From Candidatus Doudnabacteria bacterium (GTDB taxonomy: Bacteria; Patescibacteriota; Doudnabacteria; UBA920): 53,479 bases of DNA. The stretch spans positions 1 through 53,479 of the forward strand of contig JAHFJJ010000005.1 in assembly GCA_023245895.1 (NCBI GenBank), in the 5' to 3' direction. Shown here piece after piece: positions 32,983 to 46,145 of this stretch. The position numbers and the translations under genes are program-made. The notes under the pieces were generated by a model. The model was not told where the DNA came from. It saw only the letters and a list, made by a program, of their open reading frames with translations, and made no database searches. How positions within the stretch are numbered: the stretch's first letter is position 1; every line of letters starts with the position of its first letter.

Positions 32983-33011
32983 TTGACAAAAGGGTCATTT
33001 TAGAGTATACT
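32983..33011 (+). promoter_or_regulatory. near-consensus sigma70 promoter with no ORF behind it
   Basis: TTGACA at 32983-32988, exactly 17 nt, and TATACT at 33006-33011. The next CDS start is 930 nt downstream. Confidence 0.65.
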
Positions 33012-33017
33012 GTCTAG

Positions 33018-33506
33018 TTACGCTAAATCCTCCTCCGCTAAAGCTGCTGCGGACAAGAAAGGCGTACATCTTTAAAAATCCAATAATCTATATGTTTTTG
33101 CAGGAGAACATACGGATATCGCCCTTACATCAATCTTCACCAAGTTGATTGCAGAATAAAATTTTCACATCATACAGATATTTTAGAGAATCATTTATCC
33201 TAGGACTACTTTGATGGAGATTGATGTAAGGACGCTTATGCTCCTAATTTCGTTAACCCGGATTGGGGGCGCTAATGAGCCCGTTTCAAAAATTCATTTC
33301 GGCTGCAATTCTAAAATTTTGGCTGCAAAACCTTCATAGAAGCTCACCGATGCGCAAGGCATCGCCTCGCTTCTCTTCAGGTTTTTCGCTCAAAATTTTA
33401 GAATTTCGCTACGAAAGCAATTTATGAAACGGACTCTTAAAAAAGCCGTATACTCCACAAGAATATTTTTACTAACGTTCTTAAGTGTTTGAGTTTACGG
33501 TTTTTT
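33018..33506 (+). ncRNA. candidate orphan structured ncRNA (or first part of a very long leader)
   Basis: There is no ORF of 60 aa or more on either strand across 32849-33908, and no SD+ATG by eye. The predicted TSS is ~33018. Structures: a long-range stem 33123-33136/33218-33231 (14 bp perfect), a ~160-nt extended hairpin (33277-33436), and a terminator-like hairpin CCGTATACTC/GAGTTTACGG plus T6 (33446-33506). It matches no RNase P, tmRNA, SRP or 6S motifs known to me. Confidence 0.35.
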
Positions 33507-33942
33507 AATTCACATTAATTAAATTATTAATAGTGAATTAATCCGCCGAAGCTTTAGCGAAGGCGGATGTTAAATATATCGAATCTGCGAATGGGACGAA
33601 TCAACGAATGGCTACGAATGCAGACAGAAGATTGCTTATACAGTCGTGAGGCTTAGGAGGGTAAAACTTTATAGACATCTGATGATGTCGTGACCCGCAT
33701 CTCTAAGACTCACTATTGTGGAAGTAATTAGCTAGTAGTAGGTAGTATGTAGCAAGAATTAAGGCAAGGAGTATGGCGGCAAAATAGTTATCTAGGTTGT
33801 CGCCAAACTCCTTCTCTTAAAAAATTAATACTCTGAGGGCCTTAGGCCCTTTTTGTTTTGGGGACTTAAGGCCTTCAGAGTAGGCACGGGCACTTTGAAA
33901 AAAGTGCAGTGATTTATTTTGAGAGGAGGTTAAGGAGGGTAG

Positions 33943-34548
33943 ATGGAGGATTCGACGATAGACAATCAGAAAGAAAATACGAAAGAGCTTCGGCCTTTTT
34001 TTGTTTTGAGCGGCACGGGGCTAAGGTCTTTCCATGTCGACGTTACACGATTGATATCCAGGCAACTTCTTGTGGAAGTTGTATTGCCTGGGCTCATGGA
34101 TGAGGCGCAGGCGATGCTTGACAACGAACGGCGTGCAAGAGAGGCTGCGGAAGAAGAAGTCCGGGGTCTGGGCAGGTTTGTGAAACGTTTTGAGCTTATG
34201 GCGTCTCAGATGCTTTACTCTGGACGGGATTCCTCAAGGCGTGCAGACAGAGTCCGGGCAATTACACTTGTACAAGCTGGAGACCCCAAGGTTCCGGACG
34301 ACCAGATTGTGTTCTTTTTCCCTCGGGGGGAGAAGCCTCAGGTTGCCGCTCCGGTGCCCGCTAAAGCGGCGTCAAAACGGCGGGGAAGAAAGGGCAAGCG
34401 CAAGTGCGGCGTGTGCCAGAGCGCAGAACACGACGCGCGCAACTGCCCGACTAAGCCTTCACCGGCTCCGGAACCGCCAGCGGAAAAACGCGCGGTCAAG
34501 AAATCCGCGAACGCGAAGAAGAAACCGGGACGCAAAAAAAAGAAGTAG
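33943..34548 (+). CDS. CCHC zinc-knuckle protein with a Lys/Arg-rich tail (201 aa)
   Basis: AAGGAGG (33932-33938) lies 4 nt before the ATG. CGVCQSAEHDARNC matches C-x2-C-x4-H-x4-C (nt 34405-34446) and uses all three Cys of the protein. It is flanked by KRRGRKGKRK and KKKPGRKKKK. Confidence 0.8.
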   Translation: MEDSTIDNQKENTKELRPFFVLSGTGLRSFHVDVTRLISRQLLVEVVLPGLMDEAQAMLDNERRAREAAEEEVRGLGRFVKRFELMASQMLYSGRDSSRRADRVRAITLVQAGDPKVPDDQIVFFFPRGEKPQVAAPVPAKAASKRRGRKGKRKCGVCQSAEHDARNCPTKPSPAPEPPAEKRAVKKSANAKKKPGRKKKK

Positions 34549-34655
34549 TTCGGTAGTACGCCGACTGCGAATGGGGGAGTTTTTAAGTGAGTAATCATTT
34601 AGAAATTCCCCCAAAATTTTTAAACAAGTTATAATAGTAAGCGGGATTATTCCCG

Positions 34656-34735
34656 TCCCAAAATCTGCCAGCGAAACGCGTATCCGTCCTTTTAAGGATG
34701 GGTTCCTGCACGGGTTTCGTCGGCAGTTTTTGGGA
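34656..34735 (+). repeat. conserved intergenic hairpin, family H (copy A1)
   Basis: TCCCAAAATCTGCCAGCGAAACGCG...CACGGGTTTCGTCGGCAGTTTTTGGGA. It lies between a T-type hairpin (34572-34613) and the SD of the next gene. It contains the spurious ORF-track ATG at 34698. Confidence 0.7.
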
Positions 34736-34754
34736 AACACAACAGGGAGGAATT

Positions 34755-35030
34755 ATGGATATGCTTTACGTTTTACGTTTTGCTTTTATTTTAGGTTTAG
34801 CATCTGGCTTGTTTGCCAAGCTCGTGCTTAAGGAAAAGCAAAAAAAGTCGCTATGTCGGCTTTGTCTGTTAGCTGCAATTTTGTCAGTGATTGTGTGCTG
34901 CGAGCCTAAAGGAGCCGGGCAGTTATTATGGTGCATTGTTGCCGGTACGATAGCCCATTTTTGGGGCGCGGTTGGGTTTATAAATGTGCACCAATGGGTC
35001 GAGAAACGCAATAAGGGACAAACTATTTAA
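34755..35030 (+). CDS. small membrane protein (91 aa)
   Basis: GGGAGG (34745-34750) lies 4 nt before ATG 34755. Three hydrophobic segments, Cys-rich (CRLCLL, CCEPKG). Confidence 0.7.
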   Translation: MDMLYVLRFAFILGLASGLFAKLVLKEKQKKSLCRLCLLAAILSVIVCCEPKGAGQLLWCIVAGTIAHFWGAVGFINVHQWVEKRNKGQTI

Positions 35031-35044
35031 GTGGTTTGTCCCTT

Positions 35045-35099
35045 GTCAAAATTTGCCAGTGAAGATTACGCGGGGGGTTTCGTAGGCAATTTTTGGGAG
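35045..35099 (+). repeat. conserved intergenic hairpin, family H (copy A2)
   Basis: GTCAAAATTTGCCAGTGAAG...GGTTTCGTAGGCAATTTTTGGGAG. It shows a compensatory change relative to A1 (CTGCC/GGCAG versus TTGCC/GGCAA). A hairpin spanning the stop codon precedes it (35013-35044). Confidence 0.7.
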
Positions 35100-35124
35100 C
35101 GAATTTTTTGCAAAGGAGGTATAA

Positions 35125-35331
35125 ATGAGCAGGCAAGTTAAACTGCCGGTGGTTCTATTCGCGGTTTCTTCATTCATTTGTTTTTTAACGCTGGCAGTAT
35201 CGGAAATTGCCCTATGCAACCGCATTGAGCACGGATGGTATGAGCCCATACTGCTTTTGCTGGCATACTTTACCGCAGTTTCCGCATACACAATAGCGGA
35301 AAAAGATAAGCCTGAAAAAAGGCAACTTTAG
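35125..35331 (+). CDS. small membrane protein (68 aa)
   Basis: AAGGAGG (35113-35119) lies 5 nt before the ATG. Two TM helices. Confidence 0.7.
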   Translation: MSRQVKLPVVLFAVSSFICFLTLAVSEIALCNRIEHGWYEPILLLLAYFTAVSAYTIAEKDKPEKRQL

Positions 35332-35343
35332 GAGGAACAAAGA

Positions 35344-35622
35344 GTGTGGACTTTTGTTTTGTGTTTTGTCTTTGGCATGGCTTTTGTGTTTTTGCACTTG
35401 GATCGCAATGCATCGCCTTTCCTTAAGAAGTATGCCTTTGTGGCCTTTCCTGTTGTAGTCTTGGGCTCGGCCATGTTGGTTGAACCTAAGGCCGCAGATA
35501 GGTTGGCTATTCTTACGCTCTTTAATATGTTGTTTGTGTTCGTAGGCATAATTGTAGCAGTTGTGGTGGGCCTGATTTTTAACCGGCGGGGCAAGACGCC
35601 GCGAACCAATACTCCGCGGTAA
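35344..35622 (+). CDS. small membrane protein (92 aa)
   Basis: AGGAGG (35330-35335, overlapping the previous stop) lies 8 nt before the GTG. Three TM helices and a basic tail. Confidence 0.7.
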   Translation: MWTFVLCFVFGMAFVFLHLDRNASPFLKKYAFVAFPVVVLGSAMLVEPKAADRLAILTLFNMLFVFVGIIVAVVVGLIFNRRGKTPRTNTPR

Positions 35623-35642
35623 AGCCAAAAACGGCTACCCCT

Positions 35643-35683
35643 AACGAGGCATAAGCGCCGAGCGCTTAGCCTCGTTCTTTTTT
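35643..35683 (+). terminator. intrinsic terminator closing orphan array A
   Basis: Long stem AACGAGGCATAAGCGC / GCGCTTAGCCTCGTT followed by CTTTTTT. Confidence 0.85.
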
Positions 35684-35691
35684 ATCCGGGT

Positions 35692-35720
35692 TTGACTAAA
35701 ATATCTTTTTTAGCTATAAT
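35692..35720 (+). promoter_or_regulatory. sigma70-type promoter of rpmF-nusB
   Basis: TTGACT at 35692-35697, 17 nt, and TATAAT at 35715-20 (35715-35720). An F1-like leader hairpin TTCACCCCTCG...CTCGGGGTGAA follows (35750-35794). Confidence 0.6.
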
Positions 35721-35811
35721 TGTTTCACTTTATAATTTTTAAATTTAATTTCACCCCTCGACTATCCGCCAAAGGCGGATTCGCTCGGGGTGAATTTTCT
35801 GGAGAAAATTC

Positions 35812-35982: not shown

Positions 35983-36118
35983 GAACCAAGACCCAAGAAA
36001 ACAAGAATCAAAAAAGAACCAATTTTTTCCGCCGGAGGCGGATCCGCCACTGGCGGAAAATTTAAAATTTTAAACCTTGGAATTTAGTTGGGTCTTGGCA
36101 TCTTGATTCTTGGTTCTT
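35981..36118. repeat. family F4 long hairpin between rpmF and nusB, with a nested F5-type insertion
   Basis: It starts in the rpmF TAA: AAGAACCAAGACCCAAGAAAACAAGAATCAAAAAAGAACCAA...TTGGGTCTTGGCATCTTGATTCTTGGTTCTT. The loop holds CCGCCGGAGGCGG and CCGCCACTGGCGG mini-hairpins. Confidence 0.8.
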
Positions 36119-40220: not shown

Positions 40221-40412
40221 TAAGGTAAATTTAATTTTTTTATAAAGGATATCTGCTTAGGTATAACGCTTTTTTTATAAATAAGTTCGCTTTTGCCACC
40301 CACTTGATTATTTGCCCGCTAGGGGATAGACTTGGAACAATTAGGTTTGCATTCTGAAGGAGGAGTAAGCCCCTTGCCCCGAAACAGACCTAAACAATGA
40401 AAGGATGTGGAG

Positions 40413-40751
40413 ATGAAAAGGTTTTTGTTGATGGCTGTGATGATTGTGTTACTGTGCGGTGGATGTGGTGCTAAGGTTGGCGCTTGCAAGTTTGGGACGT
40501 GCATACAGGATACCAGGCCTTACATACGGGGCCTGCAGGAGATTAAGCCGCTTCCTGCTTCAAAGAAAAGGCCGCTGGGGCTTTTTAATGAATCCCCCTG
40601 CGGCGGGTATCCCAACGCGGGGTCTGTGCGGTGCCCTCTGCCTGGTAGCGAAATGCCGAAGCGTGGGCGGGGCGGATTTAAGCCCAGTAAGGATAAGGAG
40701 ACGCCTGTAGTGCCAAATATTTGGCCGGCATGGTTGGGTGTGCCTGTTTGA
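40413..40751 (+). CDS. secreted / possible lipoprotein, Cys- and Gly-rich (112 aa)
   Basis: ATG 40413 lies 7 nt after AAAGGA. Signal peptide MKRFLLMAVMIVLLCGGCG. A terminator follows. No family recognised. Confidence 0.6.
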   Translation: MKRFLLMAVMIVLLCGGCGAKVGACKFGTCIQDTRPYIRGLQEIKPLPASKKRPLGLFNESPCGGYPNAGSVRCPLPGSEMPKRGRGGFKPSKDKETPVVPNIWPAWLGVPV

Positions 40752-40766
40752 CTCTACAACAACCAG

Positions 40767-40815
40767 TCGGGGACTGCGCCGGGTTTTACGCCTGCCAGTC
40801 CCCGAAAATATTTTA
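40767..40815 (+). terminator. probable terminator
   Basis: 10-bp stem TCGGGGACTG / CAGTCCCCGA followed by AAAATATTTT. Confidence 0.55.
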
Positions 40816-42948: not shown

Positions 42949-42998
42949 TTGACAATAAGGGGTTTTTATCTTATTATAAGCAGTTATTCTGCTATAAT
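42949..42998 (+). promoter_or_regulatory. tandem promoters heading orphan array B
   Basis: P1 is TTGACA (42949-42954), 17 nt, TATTAT (42972-42977). P2 is TGC-TATAAT (42990-42998). Confidence 0.55.
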
Positions 42999-43025
42999 CC
43001 TCATTAACAAATTGTAGGCTTTTGT

Positions 43026-43064
43026 AAGTCCCAAGTCTGGAATTTCATTGCAGATTTAGGAGTT
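43026..43064 (+). repeat. family H hairpin (copy B1, in the leader of the first DksA-like gene)
   Basis: AAGTCCCAAGTCTG...CAGATTTAGGAGTT, with 12 of 14 positions paired. Confidence 0.6.
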
Positions 43065-43130
43065 CCGAAAGCAAGGAACACAGACGCGCCTAGAAAACTG
43101 AAAGCCAACCATAACAGGAGGAAGTAGAAA

Positions 43131-43478
43131 TTGAAGAAGAGTGATATAGAAAAGTACCGGCAGGTTCTTGTTGCAAAGTTGGAACAACACCTTGGTTCTG
43201 CCAAGCGCAAGGTCAGGGCGGCCACAGCCAGGATTGACTCAAGGGCCATAGACGACATAGCTCAGGCAGAGAACGATAGGGAGCTGTTGAGTCGTGGGGC
43301 CGCAAGCGACAATAAGGTCGCGGCGGCAATCGCTCGGGCCATTGCCCGGATAGACCATGGCACCTACGGAATCTGTCTGGGTTGTGAGGAAGAAATGCCT
43401 AAAAAGAGGCTGGATGCGGTTCCATGGGCCGCGCTTTGCGTTCCCTGCAAGGACCAGGAAGGGAACGGGAAAAAGTAA
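43131..43478 (+). CDS. TraR/DksA family C4 zinc-finger protein (115 aa)
   Basis: TTG start 9 nt after AGGAGG (43116-43121). N-terminal coiled coil, then CLGCEEEMPKKRLDAVPWAALCVPC (C-x2-C-x17-C-x2-C). Confidence 0.85.
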   Translation: MKKSDIEKYRQVLVAKLEQHLGSAKRKVRAATARIDSRAIDDIAQAENDRELLSRGAASDNKVAAAIARAIARIDHGTYGICLGCEEEMPKKRLDAVPWAALCVPCKDQEGNGKK

Positions 43479-43524
43479 TTTCATCAACCGGGATACACAT
43501 CAACTAAGCTGGCGTGTATCCCGA

Positions 43525-43582
43525 AACTCCTAAGTTCGTAAATCTGCCAGCCATTAAGCGGCGGATTGTGGGTTTAGGAGTT
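43525..43582 (+). repeat. family H hairpin (copy B2)
   Basis: AACTCCTAAGTTCGTAAATCTGCC-loop-GGCGGATTGTGGGTTTAGGAGTT. About a 23-bp helix with one bulge and 7 G-U pairs. The unit-specific hairpin CGGGATACAC/GTGTATCCCG (43489-43523) precedes it. Confidence 0.75.
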
Positions 43583-43669
43583 CCCAAAAGGAGGAGCTAG
43601 TTTTTTGTCTCGTTTCGCGCGCGTTAACGTTAGCAACTCAACTGATCGGATCTGAAAGGCAGGAAAAAC

Positions 43670-44077
43670 ATGCAGGACAAGAAAGTGCAGAAGTTCAAAC
43701 AGCGGCTGACTGAGGAGTATCAGAAGTTAATTCGGTCCATCAACCGGAGCCGGCTGGCCGAAGAGGAAATCACCCTGGAGAACACCGAAGATGAGGGTGA
43801 ACTGGCCACGATTAGCCACAACAAGGAGCTACTTTACAACCTCCATGAGAGCGACTTTCAAAGATTGAAGTCAATCCAGGAGGCGCTCAAACGGATGGAC
43901 CGCGGCGAGTACGGAGAGTGCCTGCGATGTTCCGAGTACATAAACGAAAAGCGTCTGCTGGCGGTGCCGTGGGCGACGCTGTGCATTACTTGCCAGGAAG
44001 AAGCGGAAAGCAAACAATCTTCCGGGCGGCCGGTTCGGGTAATAGTCGGCAAGCATGACGACGAAGACGACGACTAG
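43670..44077 (+). CDS. TraR/DksA family C4 zinc-finger protein (135 aa), paralogue of 43131-43478
   Basis: Coiled coil with the acidic tip EDEGELA, then CLRCSEYINEKRLLAVPWATLCITC. Acidic tail DDEDDD. Confidence 0.85.
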   Translation: MQDKKVQKFKQRLTEEYQKLIRSINRSRLAEEEITLENTEDEGELATISHNKELLYNLHESDFQRLKSIQEALKRMDRGEYGECLRCSEYINEKRLLAVPWATLCITCQEEAESKQSSGRPVRVIVGKHDDEDDD

Positions 44078-44125
44078 CCAATGATTCTTAGGAGCGGGAA
44101 GTGAATAAATACCACTTTCCGCTCC

Positions 44126-44167
44126 GACTCCCAAGTTTGTAAATAGTTTTTTGTAGATTTGGGAGTC
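44126..44167 (+). repeat. family H hairpin (copy B3)
   Basis: GACTCCCAAGTTTGTAAA-loop-TTTGTAGATTTGGGAGTC, an 18-bp helix including G-U pairs. The unit-specific hairpin GGAGCGGGAAGTG/CACTTTCCGCTCC (44091-44125) precedes it. Confidence 0.75.
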
Positions 44168-44963: not shown

Positions 44964-45019
44964 CAACAACAGCGGGATAGTGAGTATAACTATTAATTTA
45001 TTTATACTCACTATCCCTG

Positions 45020-45065
45020 AACTCCCAAGTTCGGATCCGCTTAGGCGGATGCAGGTTTGGGAGTT
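45020..45065 (+). repeat. family H hairpin (copy B4)
   Basis: AACTCCCAAGTTCGGATCCGC-TTAG-GCGGATGCAGGTTTGGGAGTT. The 15-bp unit-specific hairpin GGGATAGTGAGTATA/TATACTCACTATCCC (44974-45017) precedes it. Confidence 0.75.
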
Positions 45066-45658: not shown

Positions 45659-45791
45659 CATTGGCAGAAAGTTGCGAATTTTATTCCCAACTTTCTGCCC
45701 ACCACTTTGGGTGTAACCAATATAGGTTATACTTAGGGTGGTGGGAACGCACAGTTGTCTGAGGCGGTCTCATTTACAGGAGGATACCCTT

Positions 45792-46066: not shown

Positions 46067-46145
46067 GTCAGGGAATTTGTGGGAAAGCCAACCCACAAAT
46101 TCCCTGACGCCATCCTAATTCTCGCCCACAGATGGGCGTTTTTTT
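46067..46145 (+). terminator. double hairpin closing orphan array B
   Basis: A 17-bp perfect stem GTCAGGGAATTTGTGGG / CCCACAAATTCCCTGAC (46067-46108) is followed by CGCCC-CAGAT-GGGCG plus T7 (46123-46145). Confidence 0.8.

Follow-up and report, generated by a model that had tools for sequence, protein, structure and literature searches.

Array A, a group of a few small orphan membrane-protein genes, occupies the groEL–rpmF interval of an uncultured bacterium from groundwater. It is one of two islands in the window, by which we mean the whole 53,479-nt stretch of DNA that was analysed. The same array is present in independent assemblies of three samples, which rules out an assembly artefact. 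Two kinds of hairpin recur along it: a unit-specific hairpin (S) at the end of a gene and a conserved hairpin (H) ahead of the next. Bit scores given below refer to two covariance models, R1, built from the H copies of array B (B-type) together with two relatives, and R2, built from the A1 and A2 copies (A-type). The features of array A and its downstream boundary are as follows.

33943–34548, forward strand: zinc-knuckle gene, the island's first; 201 aa, basic, one CCHC zinc knuckle, orphan
34572–34613, forward strand: S(A1), unit-specific end hairpin 24 nt past the zinc-knuckle stop; 19 bp, −28 kcal/mol, z −6.7; followed by AAAATTTTT
34641–34656, forward strand: small hairpin GCGGGAUUAUUCCCGU, directly abutting H(A1); −9 kcal/mol
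34656–34735, forward strand: H(A1), conserved hairpin; −47 kcal/mol, z −8.4; R2 111.6 bits
34755–35030, forward strand: gene A1; 91 aa (89 aa with start 34761), three hydrophobic spans, orphan; Shine-Dalgarno (SD) sequence GGGAGG at 34745–34750
35011–35046, forward strand: S(A2), unit-specific end hairpin; 16 bp, −22 kcal/mol, z −7.0
35046–35098, forward strand: H(A2), conserved hairpin, short form of H(A1), 0 nt past S(A2); R2 72 bits
35125–35331, forward strand: gene A2; 68 aa, one or two hydrophobic spans; SD AAGGAGG at 35113–35119, 14 nt 3′ of H(A2)
35344–35622, forward strand: gene A3; 92 aa, three hydrophobic spans, GVG start, orphan
35643–35683, forward strand: intrinsic terminator of array A; 15-bp stem (35643–35677) and T-run UUCUUUUUU; −26 kcal/mol, z −3.3
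35692–35720, forward strand: rpmF promoter; TTGACT-17-TATAAT, 11/12 consensus positions

The zinc-knuckle reading frame is preceded by a strong SD (GAGGAGG..AAGGAGG). Its product gives a weak Lin-28-type zinc-knuckle match against Pfam (E 0.003, below the cut-off) and has no homologue among 5.8 billion proteins searched; an AF2 model with a pLDDT of 53 was too poor to serve as a structure-search query. For gene A1, an exhaustive HMMER search of 1.84 billion representatives returned the protein itself and one spurious match only. Hydrophobic spans, counted as 19-residue windows, number three in A1, three in A3 and one or two in A2, and none of the three proteins matches a Pfam, PHROG or NCBIfam family. 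We found no support for A1 and A3 as paralogues, their resemblance being weak (BLASTP E 0.09), and set aside a holin-like reading of A1–A3, the basis of which is size, hydrophobic spans and charged tails alone, without a family match.

Gene A3 has an SD (UAGGAGG) that overlaps the A2 stop codon, for which reason it appears to be translationally coupled to A2. No hairpin stands ahead of it, and no significant structure was found at 35300–35350; lacking a hairpin of its own, A3 leaves array A with two punctuated units, not three. For the arrays, consensus promoters are confined to 32983 and 42949, and terminators to the array ends. The ORF-less kilobase after groEL holds no decayed metK protein remnant by tblastn, and array A has no blastn match among phage and plasmid records. 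Array A is a short, lineage-specific string of small membrane-protein genes, apparently transcribed within a multi-gene mRNA. At 36025–36060 lies a palindromic repeat with ~100-fold excess depth; such repeats are abundant in these communities.

The S hairpins of both arrays comprise 13–19 bp, with predicted energies of −18 to −30 kcal/mol, and stand 0–24 nt after stop codons; the loop of S(A2) contains the A1 stop codon itself (TAA, 35028–35030). Only the weak AAAAUUUUU after 34613 departs from their general lack of a clean U-run, and S(A1) was flagged as terminator-like. S(A1) has three G·U pairs and is predicted to fold at −27.2 kcal/mol as sense against −14.7 kcal/mol as antisense, S(A2) at −21.3 against −15.1 kcal/mol. 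Several S hairpins are perfectly symmetric and are thus uninformative on strand. Since perfect long hairpins without a T-run also end genes elsewhere in this genome, the unit-specific kind is no peculiarity of the arrays. The small hairpin GCGGGAUUAUUCCCGU aligns pairwise with the 3′ foot of S(A2), (U)CCC(G/U)U. A TATAAT box at 34630–34635, 6 nt 5′ of this small hairpin and without a good −35, could give unit A1 a start site of its own.

H(A1) consists of a basal helix of ~20 bp, with a U·U mismatch, an A bulge and a G·U pair, and an apical hairpin of 25 nt that is missing from H(A2). Folded alone, H(A2) reaches −14.6 kcal/mol (z 0.04), no better than shuffled sequence, so that its homology to H(A1) is what marks it as a hairpin. 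It keeps 17 of the 18 basal pairs, with one compensatory pair and one conserved G·U: a C–G in A1 is replaced by U–A in A2 (alignment columns 12/73), one C–G becomes U–G, and one G·U is present in both. This covariation is equalled by 255 of 500 shuffles and, with two sequences, has no statistical weight. The A-type 3′ arm GGTTTCGTMGGCARTTTTTGGGA has exactly two copies in the window, where 100 shuffles give an expectation of none, and the 5′ arm has two exact copies and a third with two mismatches at 43540. Across 185,579 GTDB species genomes, the 3′-arm pattern produced 25 single matches, which is chance level (we estimate ~17 for 18 fixed bases in 596 Gb), and no true copies; two candidates from ultra-small bacteria, on inspection, both lay inside coding genes. 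Viral contigs contained no A-type arm. The A-type H is known from only two copies in one population.

Both A-type hairpins end 9–14 nt ahead of the SD. In the predicted folds of array A the SDs are unpaired, and we dropped an SD-sequestering switch on that account; a reading of H as an alternative-sigma promoter was likewise dropped for want of consistent −35/−10 spacing.

Much of this agrees with a first-pass annotation of the same DNA. It had described 68–92-aa multi-TM proteins of no known family, which fits the 91, 68 and 92 aa, the one to three hydrophobic spans and the absence of homologues and families, and a strong terminator followed by the rpmF promoter, which we place at 35643–35683 and 35692–35720. 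Its unit-specific hairpins (34572–34613 and 35013–35044, the second across the stop codon) reappear at 34572–34613 and 35011–35046, and the punctuation that it saw in both units is recovered as end hairpin, conserved hairpin, SD and start. The compensatory C–G/T–A change that it reported between A1 and A2 is there, in columns 12/73. Two of its points stand in part: small genes are separated by hairpins in the A1 and A2 units and not at A3, and the conserved hairpins keep their coordinates and arm motifs, with A2 unstable on its own (z 0.04).

The second island, array B, lies 3′ of metK (identified by Pfam) and repeats this punctuation around other genes.

42949–42977, forward strand: array-B promoter; TTGACA-17-TATTAT, 11/12 consensus; 3′ of metK and a 227-aa ORF
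43018–43072, forward strand: H(B0), B-type; −23 kcal/mol, z −3.5; R1 52 bits
43489–43581, forward strand: S (43489–43523), directly followed by H(B1) (43526–43581); R1 49 bits
43670–44077, forward strand: DksA/TraR-type gene (Pfam PF01258), in a horizontally acquired segment of ~43585–44077
44091–44167, forward strand: S (44091–44125) abutting H(B2) (44126–44167); the pair −45.8 kcal/mol, z −7.9; R1 58.6 bits
44974–45065, forward strand: S (44974–45017), then H(B3) (45020–45065)
45663–45743, forward strand: B4, S (45663–45699) abutting an unrelated 19-bp second hairpin (45700–45743) in the position of H
46067–46138, forward strand: last S hairpin (46067–46108) and array-B terminator (46123–46138) with T-run

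H(B0) begins the series, ~15–35 nt from where the array-B transcript is predicted to start. At B4 the layout of S, H, SD and start is kept with a second hairpin of unrelated sequence, which is R1-negative, has five G·U pairs and is predicted to fold at −27.1 kcal/mol as sense against −14.1 kcal/mol as antisense.

The dksA-like gene of this array has 559 homologues at 63–88% identity, in a conserved context of zf-CDGSH, dksA, Zip and YchF on contigs of 52–58% GC, and it shares 80–87% identity with the dksA on the chromosome of an unrelated lineage richer in GC. Its GC3 is 0.71, against 0.47–0.55 in host genes. By identity, gene context and composition, this gene is a horizontal acquisition. In DNA alignments the homology ends at H(B1) on one side and at the next S on the other. 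A DksA-like finger was the only PHROG match.

We considered whether the hairpins of the two arrays form one family, and rejected this, as each covariance model detects its own type alone. R1 scores the B-type copies at 49–59 bits and misses A1 and A2 even at E ≤ 10 with filters off; R2 finds A1 and A2 only; and with MAFFT the 5′ arms of the two types could not be aligned. The types share an architecture, a CCCAA...TTGGG helix base and one exact 12-mer, AAATCTGCCAGC, common to A1 and H(B1) (43526–43581) only. In the absence of cross-detection, the link between A and B rests on these three features. For the joint covariance model of A and B copies proposed in the first-pass annotation we find no support, and the annotation's claim of a core shared with array B survives as the 12-mer in A1 and at 43526–43581, without the single H family.

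All told, the window carries two A-type and four B-type copies in two islands, in one orientation relative to the genes. A looser hairpin-pattern scan for extra copies was not discriminating (14 matches against 15.7 in shuffles), and only the known copies in it pair without register shifts. A search of the whole window with Rfam 15 passes a tRNA-Gly only, and permissive Rfam scans of both islands give the hairpins nothing beyond sub-threshold, microRNA-like noise. The 3′ flank of H reads AACACAAC or GCGAAUU and has no U-run, so H lacks the make-up of an intrinsic terminator, whereas the true terminators at 35643–35683 and 46123–46138 combine stem and U-run.

The B-type H recurs in two distant relatives, L034 and L039, in the same S, H, SD layout and beside unrelated small genes. 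L039 is divergent enough that its groEL and metK are only 65–70% identical to those of the window. The L034 hairpin is 79% identical to H(B3) over 67 nt, and their apical stems (AUCCGC/GCGGAU in H(B3), AUCGCC/GGCGAU in L034) are related by two compensatory pair swaps. In L039 the groEL–rpmF interval contains metK and an array of very different small genes with the same hairpin punctuation, so that the comparison suggested at first pass finds the units not to be invariant; the array genes of the window, L034 and L039 are mutually unrelated. The order S, H, SD, start is found twice in array A, three times in array B and again in L034 and L039, and the S–H linker is 0–3 nt in nine of nine junctions. 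Exact-protein look-ups of rpmF and HU returned the same population only, Logan contigs of four runs placed on L039 gave fragmentary pieces that are unreadable as unit gain or loss, and no related viral loci were found.

Several features indicate the strand on which H is read. Every H is predicted to be 4–15 kcal/mol more stable as sense than as antisense (H(A1), −47.0 against −35.8 kcal/mol; H(B2), −20.9 against −11.8 kcal/mol), owing to G·U pairs, of which there are 2–5 on the sense strand versus 0–2 on the antisense. One G·U is invariant in six of six B-type copies and one U·G is present in five of six. R1 gives 49–59 bits on the sense strand versus 18–26 bits on the antisense. Double changes occur in 3 of 14 B-type basal pairs, and 95% of cells are paired, compared with 12–58% when the partner columns are slid. 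Sense-stable folding together with the conserved G·U pairs argues that H acts as RNA, and the predicted structures show selection on it in that form. The alignments also show that its sequence is conserved across very divergent genomes, flanking genes that vary from genome to genome, one of them acquired horizontally. Such strong primary-sequence conservation says that something reads the sequence, without implying the identity of the reader. Three metatranscriptomes of the same groundwater study contained nothing from this contig, and none of the RNA runs searched for the relative contains it.

Taken together, the hairpins probably represent an RNA element not described before, one that organises how a fast-changing gene island is expressed. 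More specifically, we propose, with somewhat less than even confidence, that they serve as intercistronic RNA punctuation of a hypervariable accessory-gene island, through segmental mRNA processing, stabilisation or insulation. Each translation unit in the mRNA would be marked by two adjacent stem-loops: S, the unit-specific end hairpin of the upstream cistron, without a proper U-tail, and H, the conserved stem-loop that starts 0–3 nt past S and ends 9–14 nt ahead of the SD. An endoribonuclease or a sequence-specific factor would cut the polycistronic RNA at or beside the S|H junction, or within H. The predicted pairs (32 in A1, 17 in A2, 18–23 in B-type copies) are adequate in some copies and marginal in others for the ~20 bp (two turns) of largely unbroken duplex that RNase III requires. 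After the cut, S would shield the 3′ end of the upstream segment, and H, now the 5′-proximal stem-loop of the downstream segment, would shield it against 5′-end-dependent decay. H would also keep the downstream ribosome-binding site from pairing with upstream sequence. Such an adaptor could let promoterless, unrelated or newly acquired genes run at set levels from one upstream promoter in a rapidly changing accessory island. The TATAAT box at 34630–34635, the terminator-like S(A1) and the weak lone fold of H(A2) weigh against this reading.

H might instead be an operator, a site at which a sequence-specific RNA-binding protein (the CCHC zinc-knuckle protein or a host factor) co-regulates translation of all units, in place of a processing or stability element. 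Primary sequence, invariant G·U pairs, mismatches and bulges are kept beyond what pairing needs, H lies 9–14 nt from the SD, and a gene for a basic zinc-knuckle protein heads array A. In eukaryotes and retroviruses, proteins of this kind bind RNA stem-loops. Yet this one has no homologue while the B-type H occurs in L034 and L039, so it is not the general partner of H; no conserved candidate binding protein was found beside the arrays, and the SDs are not sequestered in predicted folds. We consider an operator unlikely.

We regard it as less likely still that H is a selfish or neutral palindromic repeat, akin to a MITE or REP, which spread to the foot of existing hairpins and is tolerated without a dedicated role. 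H is indeed a short imperfect palindrome, exclusively intergenic and always placed after another hairpin, its copies are distinguished by nested apical insertions, and other palindromic repeats, such as that at 36025–36060, abound in these communities. Similarity between divergent genomes could also reflect horizontal spread. Against this, the six copies in 53 kb are confined to two islands, in one orientation and at a fixed distance from the SD, and neither terminal inverted repeats with target-site duplications nor a transposase was seen in the window. No true copy of the A-type arm turned up in 185,579 species genomes or in viral contigs, and both the strand asymmetry and the conserved wobble pairs speak for selection at the RNA level.

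A DNA-level insertion would likewise yield the exact bracketing of the acquired dksA (80–87% identical to that of an unrelated lineage) by H and S, and H or S+H could thus be an integron-like recombination site that folds as sense single-stranded DNA and gathers promoterless cassettes behind a fixed promoter. The arrays occupy a conserved location (metK, groEL, rpmF), yet the window, L034 and L039 each fill it with small genes unrelated to those of the others; a single promoter precedes array B and a single terminator closes each array; and the cargo is mostly small and orphan, as in chromosomal integrons. The sizeable ORFs of the 53-kb window, however, include no tyrosine or serine recombinase, transposase or reverse transcriptase, and neither attC core, RYYYAAC or GTTRRRY, occurs in H or S. 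The outer arms of H read (U)CCCAAAA...UUUUGGGA in the A-type and ACUCCYAAGUU...UUURGGAGU in the B-type, and one copy alone reads GTTAGGA, by chance. Moreover, recombination of attC uses the bottom strand, but it is the top (sense) strand of H that gives the better fold, the other being 4–15 kcal/mol weaker; each junction has two separate hairpins in place of one imperfect palindrome with extrahelical bases; and DNA contigs of the three samples show no alternative junctions. We therefore judge a capture site improbable. A broader version, in which the S|H arrays are an unrecognised gene-capture and expression platform of ultra-small groundwater bacteria, strikes us as more doubtful again. Foreign or newborn promoterless genes would enter between the hairpins at a fixed hot spot near metK, groEL and rpmF, with the dksA copied from an unrelated lineage as one example, and H would act as both insertion landmark and RNA adaptor, making the cargo stable and translatable. 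Its function would be analogous to that of integrons, with different sites, the opposite strand and an enzyme yet to be named.

Finally, simple local duplication, with the A2 leader a decaying and functionless tandem copy of the A1 leader, fits the existence of only two A-type copies 363–390 nt apart with arms 92% identical, and the lost helix base and weak folding of A2, but is very improbable given that the genes after the two copies are unrelated and similarity ends at the hairpin, that one double change preserves a pair, and that array B and two other genomes show the layout again, built on a different hairpin sequence.

If the punctuation reading is right, the arrays would contain a compact RNA adaptor by which rapidly changing small accessory genes, mostly for membrane proteins and including acquired regulators, are expressed from a single promoter. 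The hairpins would form a new sequence-conserved intercistronic class beside the few known cases of segmental processing and stabilisation. R1 and R2 would then provide a handle on hypervariable islands in genomes full of unannotatable orphans, and the element could serve as a natural cistron insulator for synthetic operons. Were capture at the DNA level to apply instead, the arrays would be cassette platforms of a new kind, distinct from the integron family.

Several known systems resemble parts of this arrangement. The Correia/NEMIS elements of Neisseria, the ERIC/IRU elements of enterobacteria and REP/BIME are short imperfect palindromes in transcribed spacers that fold in mRNA; those of the Correia and ERIC type also affect RNase cleavage and how stable adjacent cistrons are. 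Such families number from tens to hundreds of copies, dispersed and in either orientation, and their terminal repeats come with target duplications. H is likewise a short imperfect palindrome of (presumably) transcribed spacers, and differs in its few copies (two plus four in 53 kb), its restriction to two islands, its single orientation and its fixed SD distance.

The early genes of phage T7 have RNase III processing hairpins between them, and bacterial mRNAs are stabilised by 5′-terminal stem-loops that lie within a few nucleotides of the end, as in the leaders of E. coli ompA and of B. subtilis ermC and aprE. Like the T7 hairpins, those described here are intercistronic structures of ~20 bp with internal mismatches, read in the sense RNA. 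In such systems a cut leaves one hairpin at a 3′ end and a structured 5′ end before the next ribosome-binding site, and the S–H spacing of 0–3 nt fits the rule that the stabilising stem-loop lies within a few nucleotides of the 5′ end. In contrast to T7, the arrays have no phage context and two hairpins per junction instead of one, and H is sequence-conserved across genomes with invariant G·U pairs, properties for which T7 sites are not known.

Integron cassette arrays also consist of small, mostly orphan genes, promoterless as those here are predicted to be, with imperfect palindromes of 50–100 nt between them, a promoter at one end, cargo that changes from relative to relative and at least one foreign gene (PMC4889954, PMC2727003). 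The present arrays differ from them in having no integrase in 53 kb, no RYYYAAC/GTTRRRY cores, and folding on the sense (top) and not the bottom strand. They also have two hairpins per junction, with the conserved hairpin placed before a gene's SD, unlike the variable element behind an integron gene.

The selective RNA processing and stabilisation (SRPS) stem-loops of the cip-cel operon in Clostridium (Ruminiclostridium) cellulolyticum are another close parallel, being likewise stable, U-run-less stem-loops at the 3′ ends of internal cistrons (PMC4423207, PMC10311766), a description that the S hairpins share. In Clostridium operons, such internal stem-loops of −6.6 to −31.8 kcal/mol lie at 3′ cistron ends beside mapped processing sites and set transcript ratios (PMC4423207). 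Stem-loops are rare 5′ of processing sites in C. cellulolyticum, at 6 of 33 (PMC4423207). The cargo differs, as the arrays carry orphan small genes and not complex subunits, and processing here is inferred. The energies overlap (S, −18 to −30 kcal/mol; C. cellulolyticum, −6.6 to −31.8 kcal/mol; PMC4423207), and in both systems each hairpin belongs to its own gene; what sets the present arrays apart is the second, sequence-conserved hairpin that follows at once, ahead of the SD.

The window appears to be a chromosomal segment of an uncultured groundwater bacterium with a small genome. Encoded on it are groES/groEL, rpmF, nusB, HU, a BrnT/BrnA pair, tRNA-Gly, metK, transketolase, ftsZ, nrdR/RNR, relA/spoT and comEC, and the sequencing runs containing its sequence are labelled groundwater metagenome. 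Array A lies between groEL and rpmF, where the upstream cistron ends in a unit-specific hairpin (S) and a conserved hairpin (H) follows ahead of the Shine-Dalgarno (SD) sequence.

Array A and its flanks
Directly after groEL, upstream of the zinc-knuckle gene: kilobase without ORFs
33943-34548: zinc-knuckle gene (201-aa basic protein, one CCHC zinc knuckle)
34572-34613: hairpin S(A1), after the zinc-knuckle gene (fold z -6.7)
34641-34656: small hairpin between S(A1) and H(A1)
34656-34735: conserved hairpin H(A1), then SD and gene A1 (fold z -8.4)
34755-35030: gene A1, good SD, three hydrophobic 19-residue windows
35011-35046: hairpin S(A2) (fold z -7.0)
35046-35098: conserved hairpin H(A2), then SD and gene A2 (alone, z 0.04)
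35125-35331: gene A2, good SD, one or two hydrophobic 19-residue windows
35344-35622: gene A3, no hairpin in front, good SD overlapping the A2 stop, three hydrophobic 19-residue windows
35643-35683: canonical terminator, end of array A
35692-35720: rpmF promoter

The hairpins, the conserved pair and the terminator before the rpmF promoter, all described in the first-pass annotation, are confirmed at these coordinates and recur in independent assemblies from three samples. The second unit hairpin indeed spans a stop codon, that of A1, which sits in the S(A2) loop. S(A1), S(A2) and H(A1) fold strongly, H(A2) by itself no better than shuffled sequence, and the 23-nt 3′ arm of the A-type H has exactly two occurrences in the window, with none expected. 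With two A-type copies from one population, A1/A2 covariation carries no statistical weight. The array A hairpins are a real, unannotated pair of conserved 5′-leader hairpins.

The genes had been described as multi-TM with no known family, and this holds: A1, A2 and A3 have no match in Pfam, PHROGs or NCBIfam. Neither the zinc-knuckle protein nor A3 has a homologue among 5.8 billion clustered proteins, and an exhaustive HMMER pass with A1 over 1.84 billion representatives returned nothing real. The island genes have host-like base composition (GC3 0.43-0.54, versus 0.47-0.55 in housekeeping genes) and are true lineage-specific orphans. In size, hydrophobic spans and charged tails they bear a holin-like or toxin-like resemblance, but no more than that.

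Several neighbouring features were also seen. Within its first 30 codons, the zinc-knuckle ORF contains a near-copy (33983-34030) of the terminator-like sequence upstream at 33835-33895, the two sharing GGCC(T)5-7GTTTTGAG(C/A)GG...GGCACGGG; the N-terminus may be built over a duplicated terminator, or the true start may lie further downstream. Right behind an 11/12-consensus promoter (32983-33011), the ~0.9 kb at 33012-33912 has no ORF above 54 aa and contains several long nested inverted repeats. Its predicted fold is -333 kcal/mol versus -218 ± 8 for shuffles (z -13.7), and it has no Rfam match, protein remnant or similarity to the two relatives L034 and L039 described below. Possible readings are a large structured RNA and a graveyard of array hairpins. 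Between rpmF and nusB, the palindrome TTTTCCGCCGGAGGCGGATCCGCCACTGGCGGAAAA at 36025-36060 (also 35764-35779) reaches a contig depth of ~690 versus ~6 around it in one metagenome, with many different flanks attached; it is a short repeat common to many organisms of that community. Ahead of metK, a 114-aa orphan ORF (40407-40751, local GC 0.55) ends in a hairpin at 40761-40806, CGGGGACUG...CAGUCCCCG then AAAAUAUUUU, in the style of S(A1), and may be another small island unit lacking H.

Array B, ~8 kb away, has the same layout.

Array B hairpins and boundaries
42949: promoter
43018-43072: extra B-type copy H(B0), just past the promoter
43526-43581: B-type H at a junction, 0-3 nt after a unit-specific S
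44126-44167: B-type H at a junction, 0-3 nt after a unit-specific S
45020-45065: B-type H at a junction, H(B3), 0-3 nt after a unit-specific S
45700-45743: second hairpin of the fourth junction (B4), unrelated in sequence to H
46138: terminator

That the two arrays follow one plan is supported: they share their architecture, the helix base CCCAA...UUGGG and one exact 12-mer, AAATCTGCCAGC, the last limited to H(A1) and the hairpin at 43526-43581. The proposal of a single H family is unsupported, because covariance models do not unite the types. The B-type model (four B copies and two relatives; consensus ACUCCYAAGUUYG...CRGRUUURGGAGU) scored its own members at 49-59 bits and missed both A1 and A2, even with filters off and a cut-off of E ≤ 10; the A-type model, built from A1 and A2, found only those two. 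No further H copies occur in the window outside the two islands.

Scanning metagenomes for the B-type pattern returned 23 loci, two of them true relatives (L034 and L039). In ten others (L035, L036, L038, L047, L049, L051-L055) the match is the apex of long palindromes of CCCAAC-like heptads (matched stretches 46-59% GC; for example ...CCAACGCCCAATTAACTCCAACCCCCAAACTCCCAAGTT...TTTGGGAGTTTTTGGAACTTGGGAGTTGGGAG...), a different repeat family that contained the search pattern by chance. L034 reads metK end, promoter, two small ORFs, S, H, SD-ATG, and its H matches H(B3) at 79% identity across 67 nt. L039, from a 139-kb contig present in many groundwater runs, reads groEL, metK, promoter, 34-aa basic ORF, S|H, further hairpins, 74-aa membrane ORF, S with an abutting H-like helix, 42-aa membrane ORF, terminator, toxin-antitoxin-like pair, rpmF, nusB. 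Its long branched H-like helix, CUCUCAAGCUG...CAGCUUGAGGGG, lies in a region folding at -98 kcal/mol (z -6.6).

Units had been expected to vary among relatives, and across the 53 kb of source genome and ~9 kb of relatives examined they do: L039 and the window share no array genes, with the hairpin punctuation kept and groEL and metK only 65-70% identical in DNA. The groEL-rpmF interval likewise differs in content, enclosing metK and the array in L039, with metK and array B 5 kb further on in the window. The apical stem AUCGCC/GGCGAU of L034 versus AUCCGC/GCGGAU in the window amounts to two compensatory pair swaps. In the B-type basal helix, 95% of cells are paired versus 12-58% with partners slid, and 3 of 14 pairs show double changes. 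As judged from these alignments, the punctuation is conserved and covarying while the cargo turns over.

A conserved leader hairpin, GACCCGCAG...CUGCGGGUCUUU(A)UUUU, lies in both relatives ahead of the first array gene and behind the post-metK promoter; it is not present in the window and may be a small RNA or attenuator.

Conserved leader hairpin of the relatives
L039 2720-2800, minus strand
L034 690-770, minus strand

In two runs, L039 2678-2945, which contains it, is covered 5-9 times as deeply as neighbouring genes; the stretch is therefore shared by many co-occurring relatives.

Cargo can also be acquired. Array B holds two DksA/TraR-type zinc-finger genes (43131-43478 and 43670-44077; 34% mutual identity); RelA/SpoT is encoded in the same genome (24064-25578, minus strand). 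For the second zinc-finger gene, 559 homologues share 63-88% identity. All six homologue contigs fetched have 52-58% GC, a conserved chromosomal neighbourhood (zf-CDGSH - dksA - Zip - YchF, plus NuoF, IlvD, MraZ and similar) and no H upstream. The gene's GC3 is 0.71 versus 0.47-0.55 in host genes. DNA similarity to the closest homologue (78%) runs from ~85 nt of leader through the stop codon, with limits just after H and just before the next S. The gene is not a chimera, because four independent assemblies join metK, the gene and transketolase. Sequence comparison thus identifies it as a recent horizontal acquisition from a GC-richer lineage with the zf-CDGSH/dksA/Zip/YchF order. Its leader, which seems homologous to the donor's, contains a candidate 16-codon upstream ORF (43605-43655) whose TTG start lies 10 nt past an SD, GGAGG, at 43590-43594. 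The arrays carry orphans and acquired genes alike, each slotted between H and S.

The hairpins have no Rfam match, and no phage or plasmid relation was found. H was rejected as a terminator, having no following U-run. The S hairpins are probably ordinary gene-end structures, because similar long perfect hairpins end genes elsewhere in the genome (1645, 13187, 26294, 28996, 53434). Folding the sense strand gives the more stable structure, by 4-15 kcal/mol, for all H copies (two A-type, four B-type, B4, and those of L034 and L039). Their helices include 2-5 G.U pairs that turn into A.C mismatches on the opposite strand; across the B-type alignment, all six copies keep one G.U and five of six keep one U.G. 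H(A1) and H(A2) likewise have a G.U pair, a U.U mismatch and a bulged A in common. A dsDNA operator or cruciform would not show such asymmetry. Given the predicted sense-strand stability and the G.U pairs, the likeliest interpretation is that H is read within the mRNA, and we are fairly confident that it is a functional sense-RNA structure. The conservation of wobble pairs and mismatches suggests that its recognition is sequence-specific.

H might be an operator in the mRNA, bound by a sequence-specific protein, which we regard as unlikely. Ranking after it, and also unlikely, is a tolerated MITE/REP-like palindrome; no recombinase, transposase or reverse transcriptase was found within the 53-kb window. 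An integron-like DNA capture site is less probable again: attC core sites are absent, and integron attC is used as the bottom strand, whereas the bottom strand of H is the weaker one. That the H(A2) leader is a decaying local duplicate seems very improbable.

We favour, tentatively and with slightly less than even confidence in the whole mechanism, a reading in which S and H together form RNA punctuation of a polycistronic transcript. H lies 0-3 nt past the end hairpin of the preceding cistron and 9-14 nt ahead of the SD, and the array has a promoter in front and a terminator behind. A cut at or near the S|H junction, or inside H, would leave the upstream segment protected at its 3′ end by S and give the downstream one H as its 5′-proximal stem-loop. 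Array B would need no cut at H(B0), which lies near its predicted primary 5′ end. A further role of H may be to shield each ribosome-binding site from the unrelated sequence that precedes it, which would suit an island with ever-changing content.

Hairpin-punctuated hypervariable small-gene arrays in groundwater bacteria are a previously undescribed wider pattern. There is a small chance that the hairpins mark a new kind of gene-capture platform; they are best filed as a new form of intercistronic mRNA stem-loop punctuation. In the ompA, ermC and aprE leaders, a protective 5′ stem-loop must sit no more than a few nucleotides from the end, a rule that the 0-3 nt S-H spacing fits. Among documented systems, the nearest is selective RNA processing and stabilisation in Clostridium operons, where U-less 3′ stem-loops, of similar energy to those here, lie beside mapped processing sites and set transcript ratios (PMC4423207).
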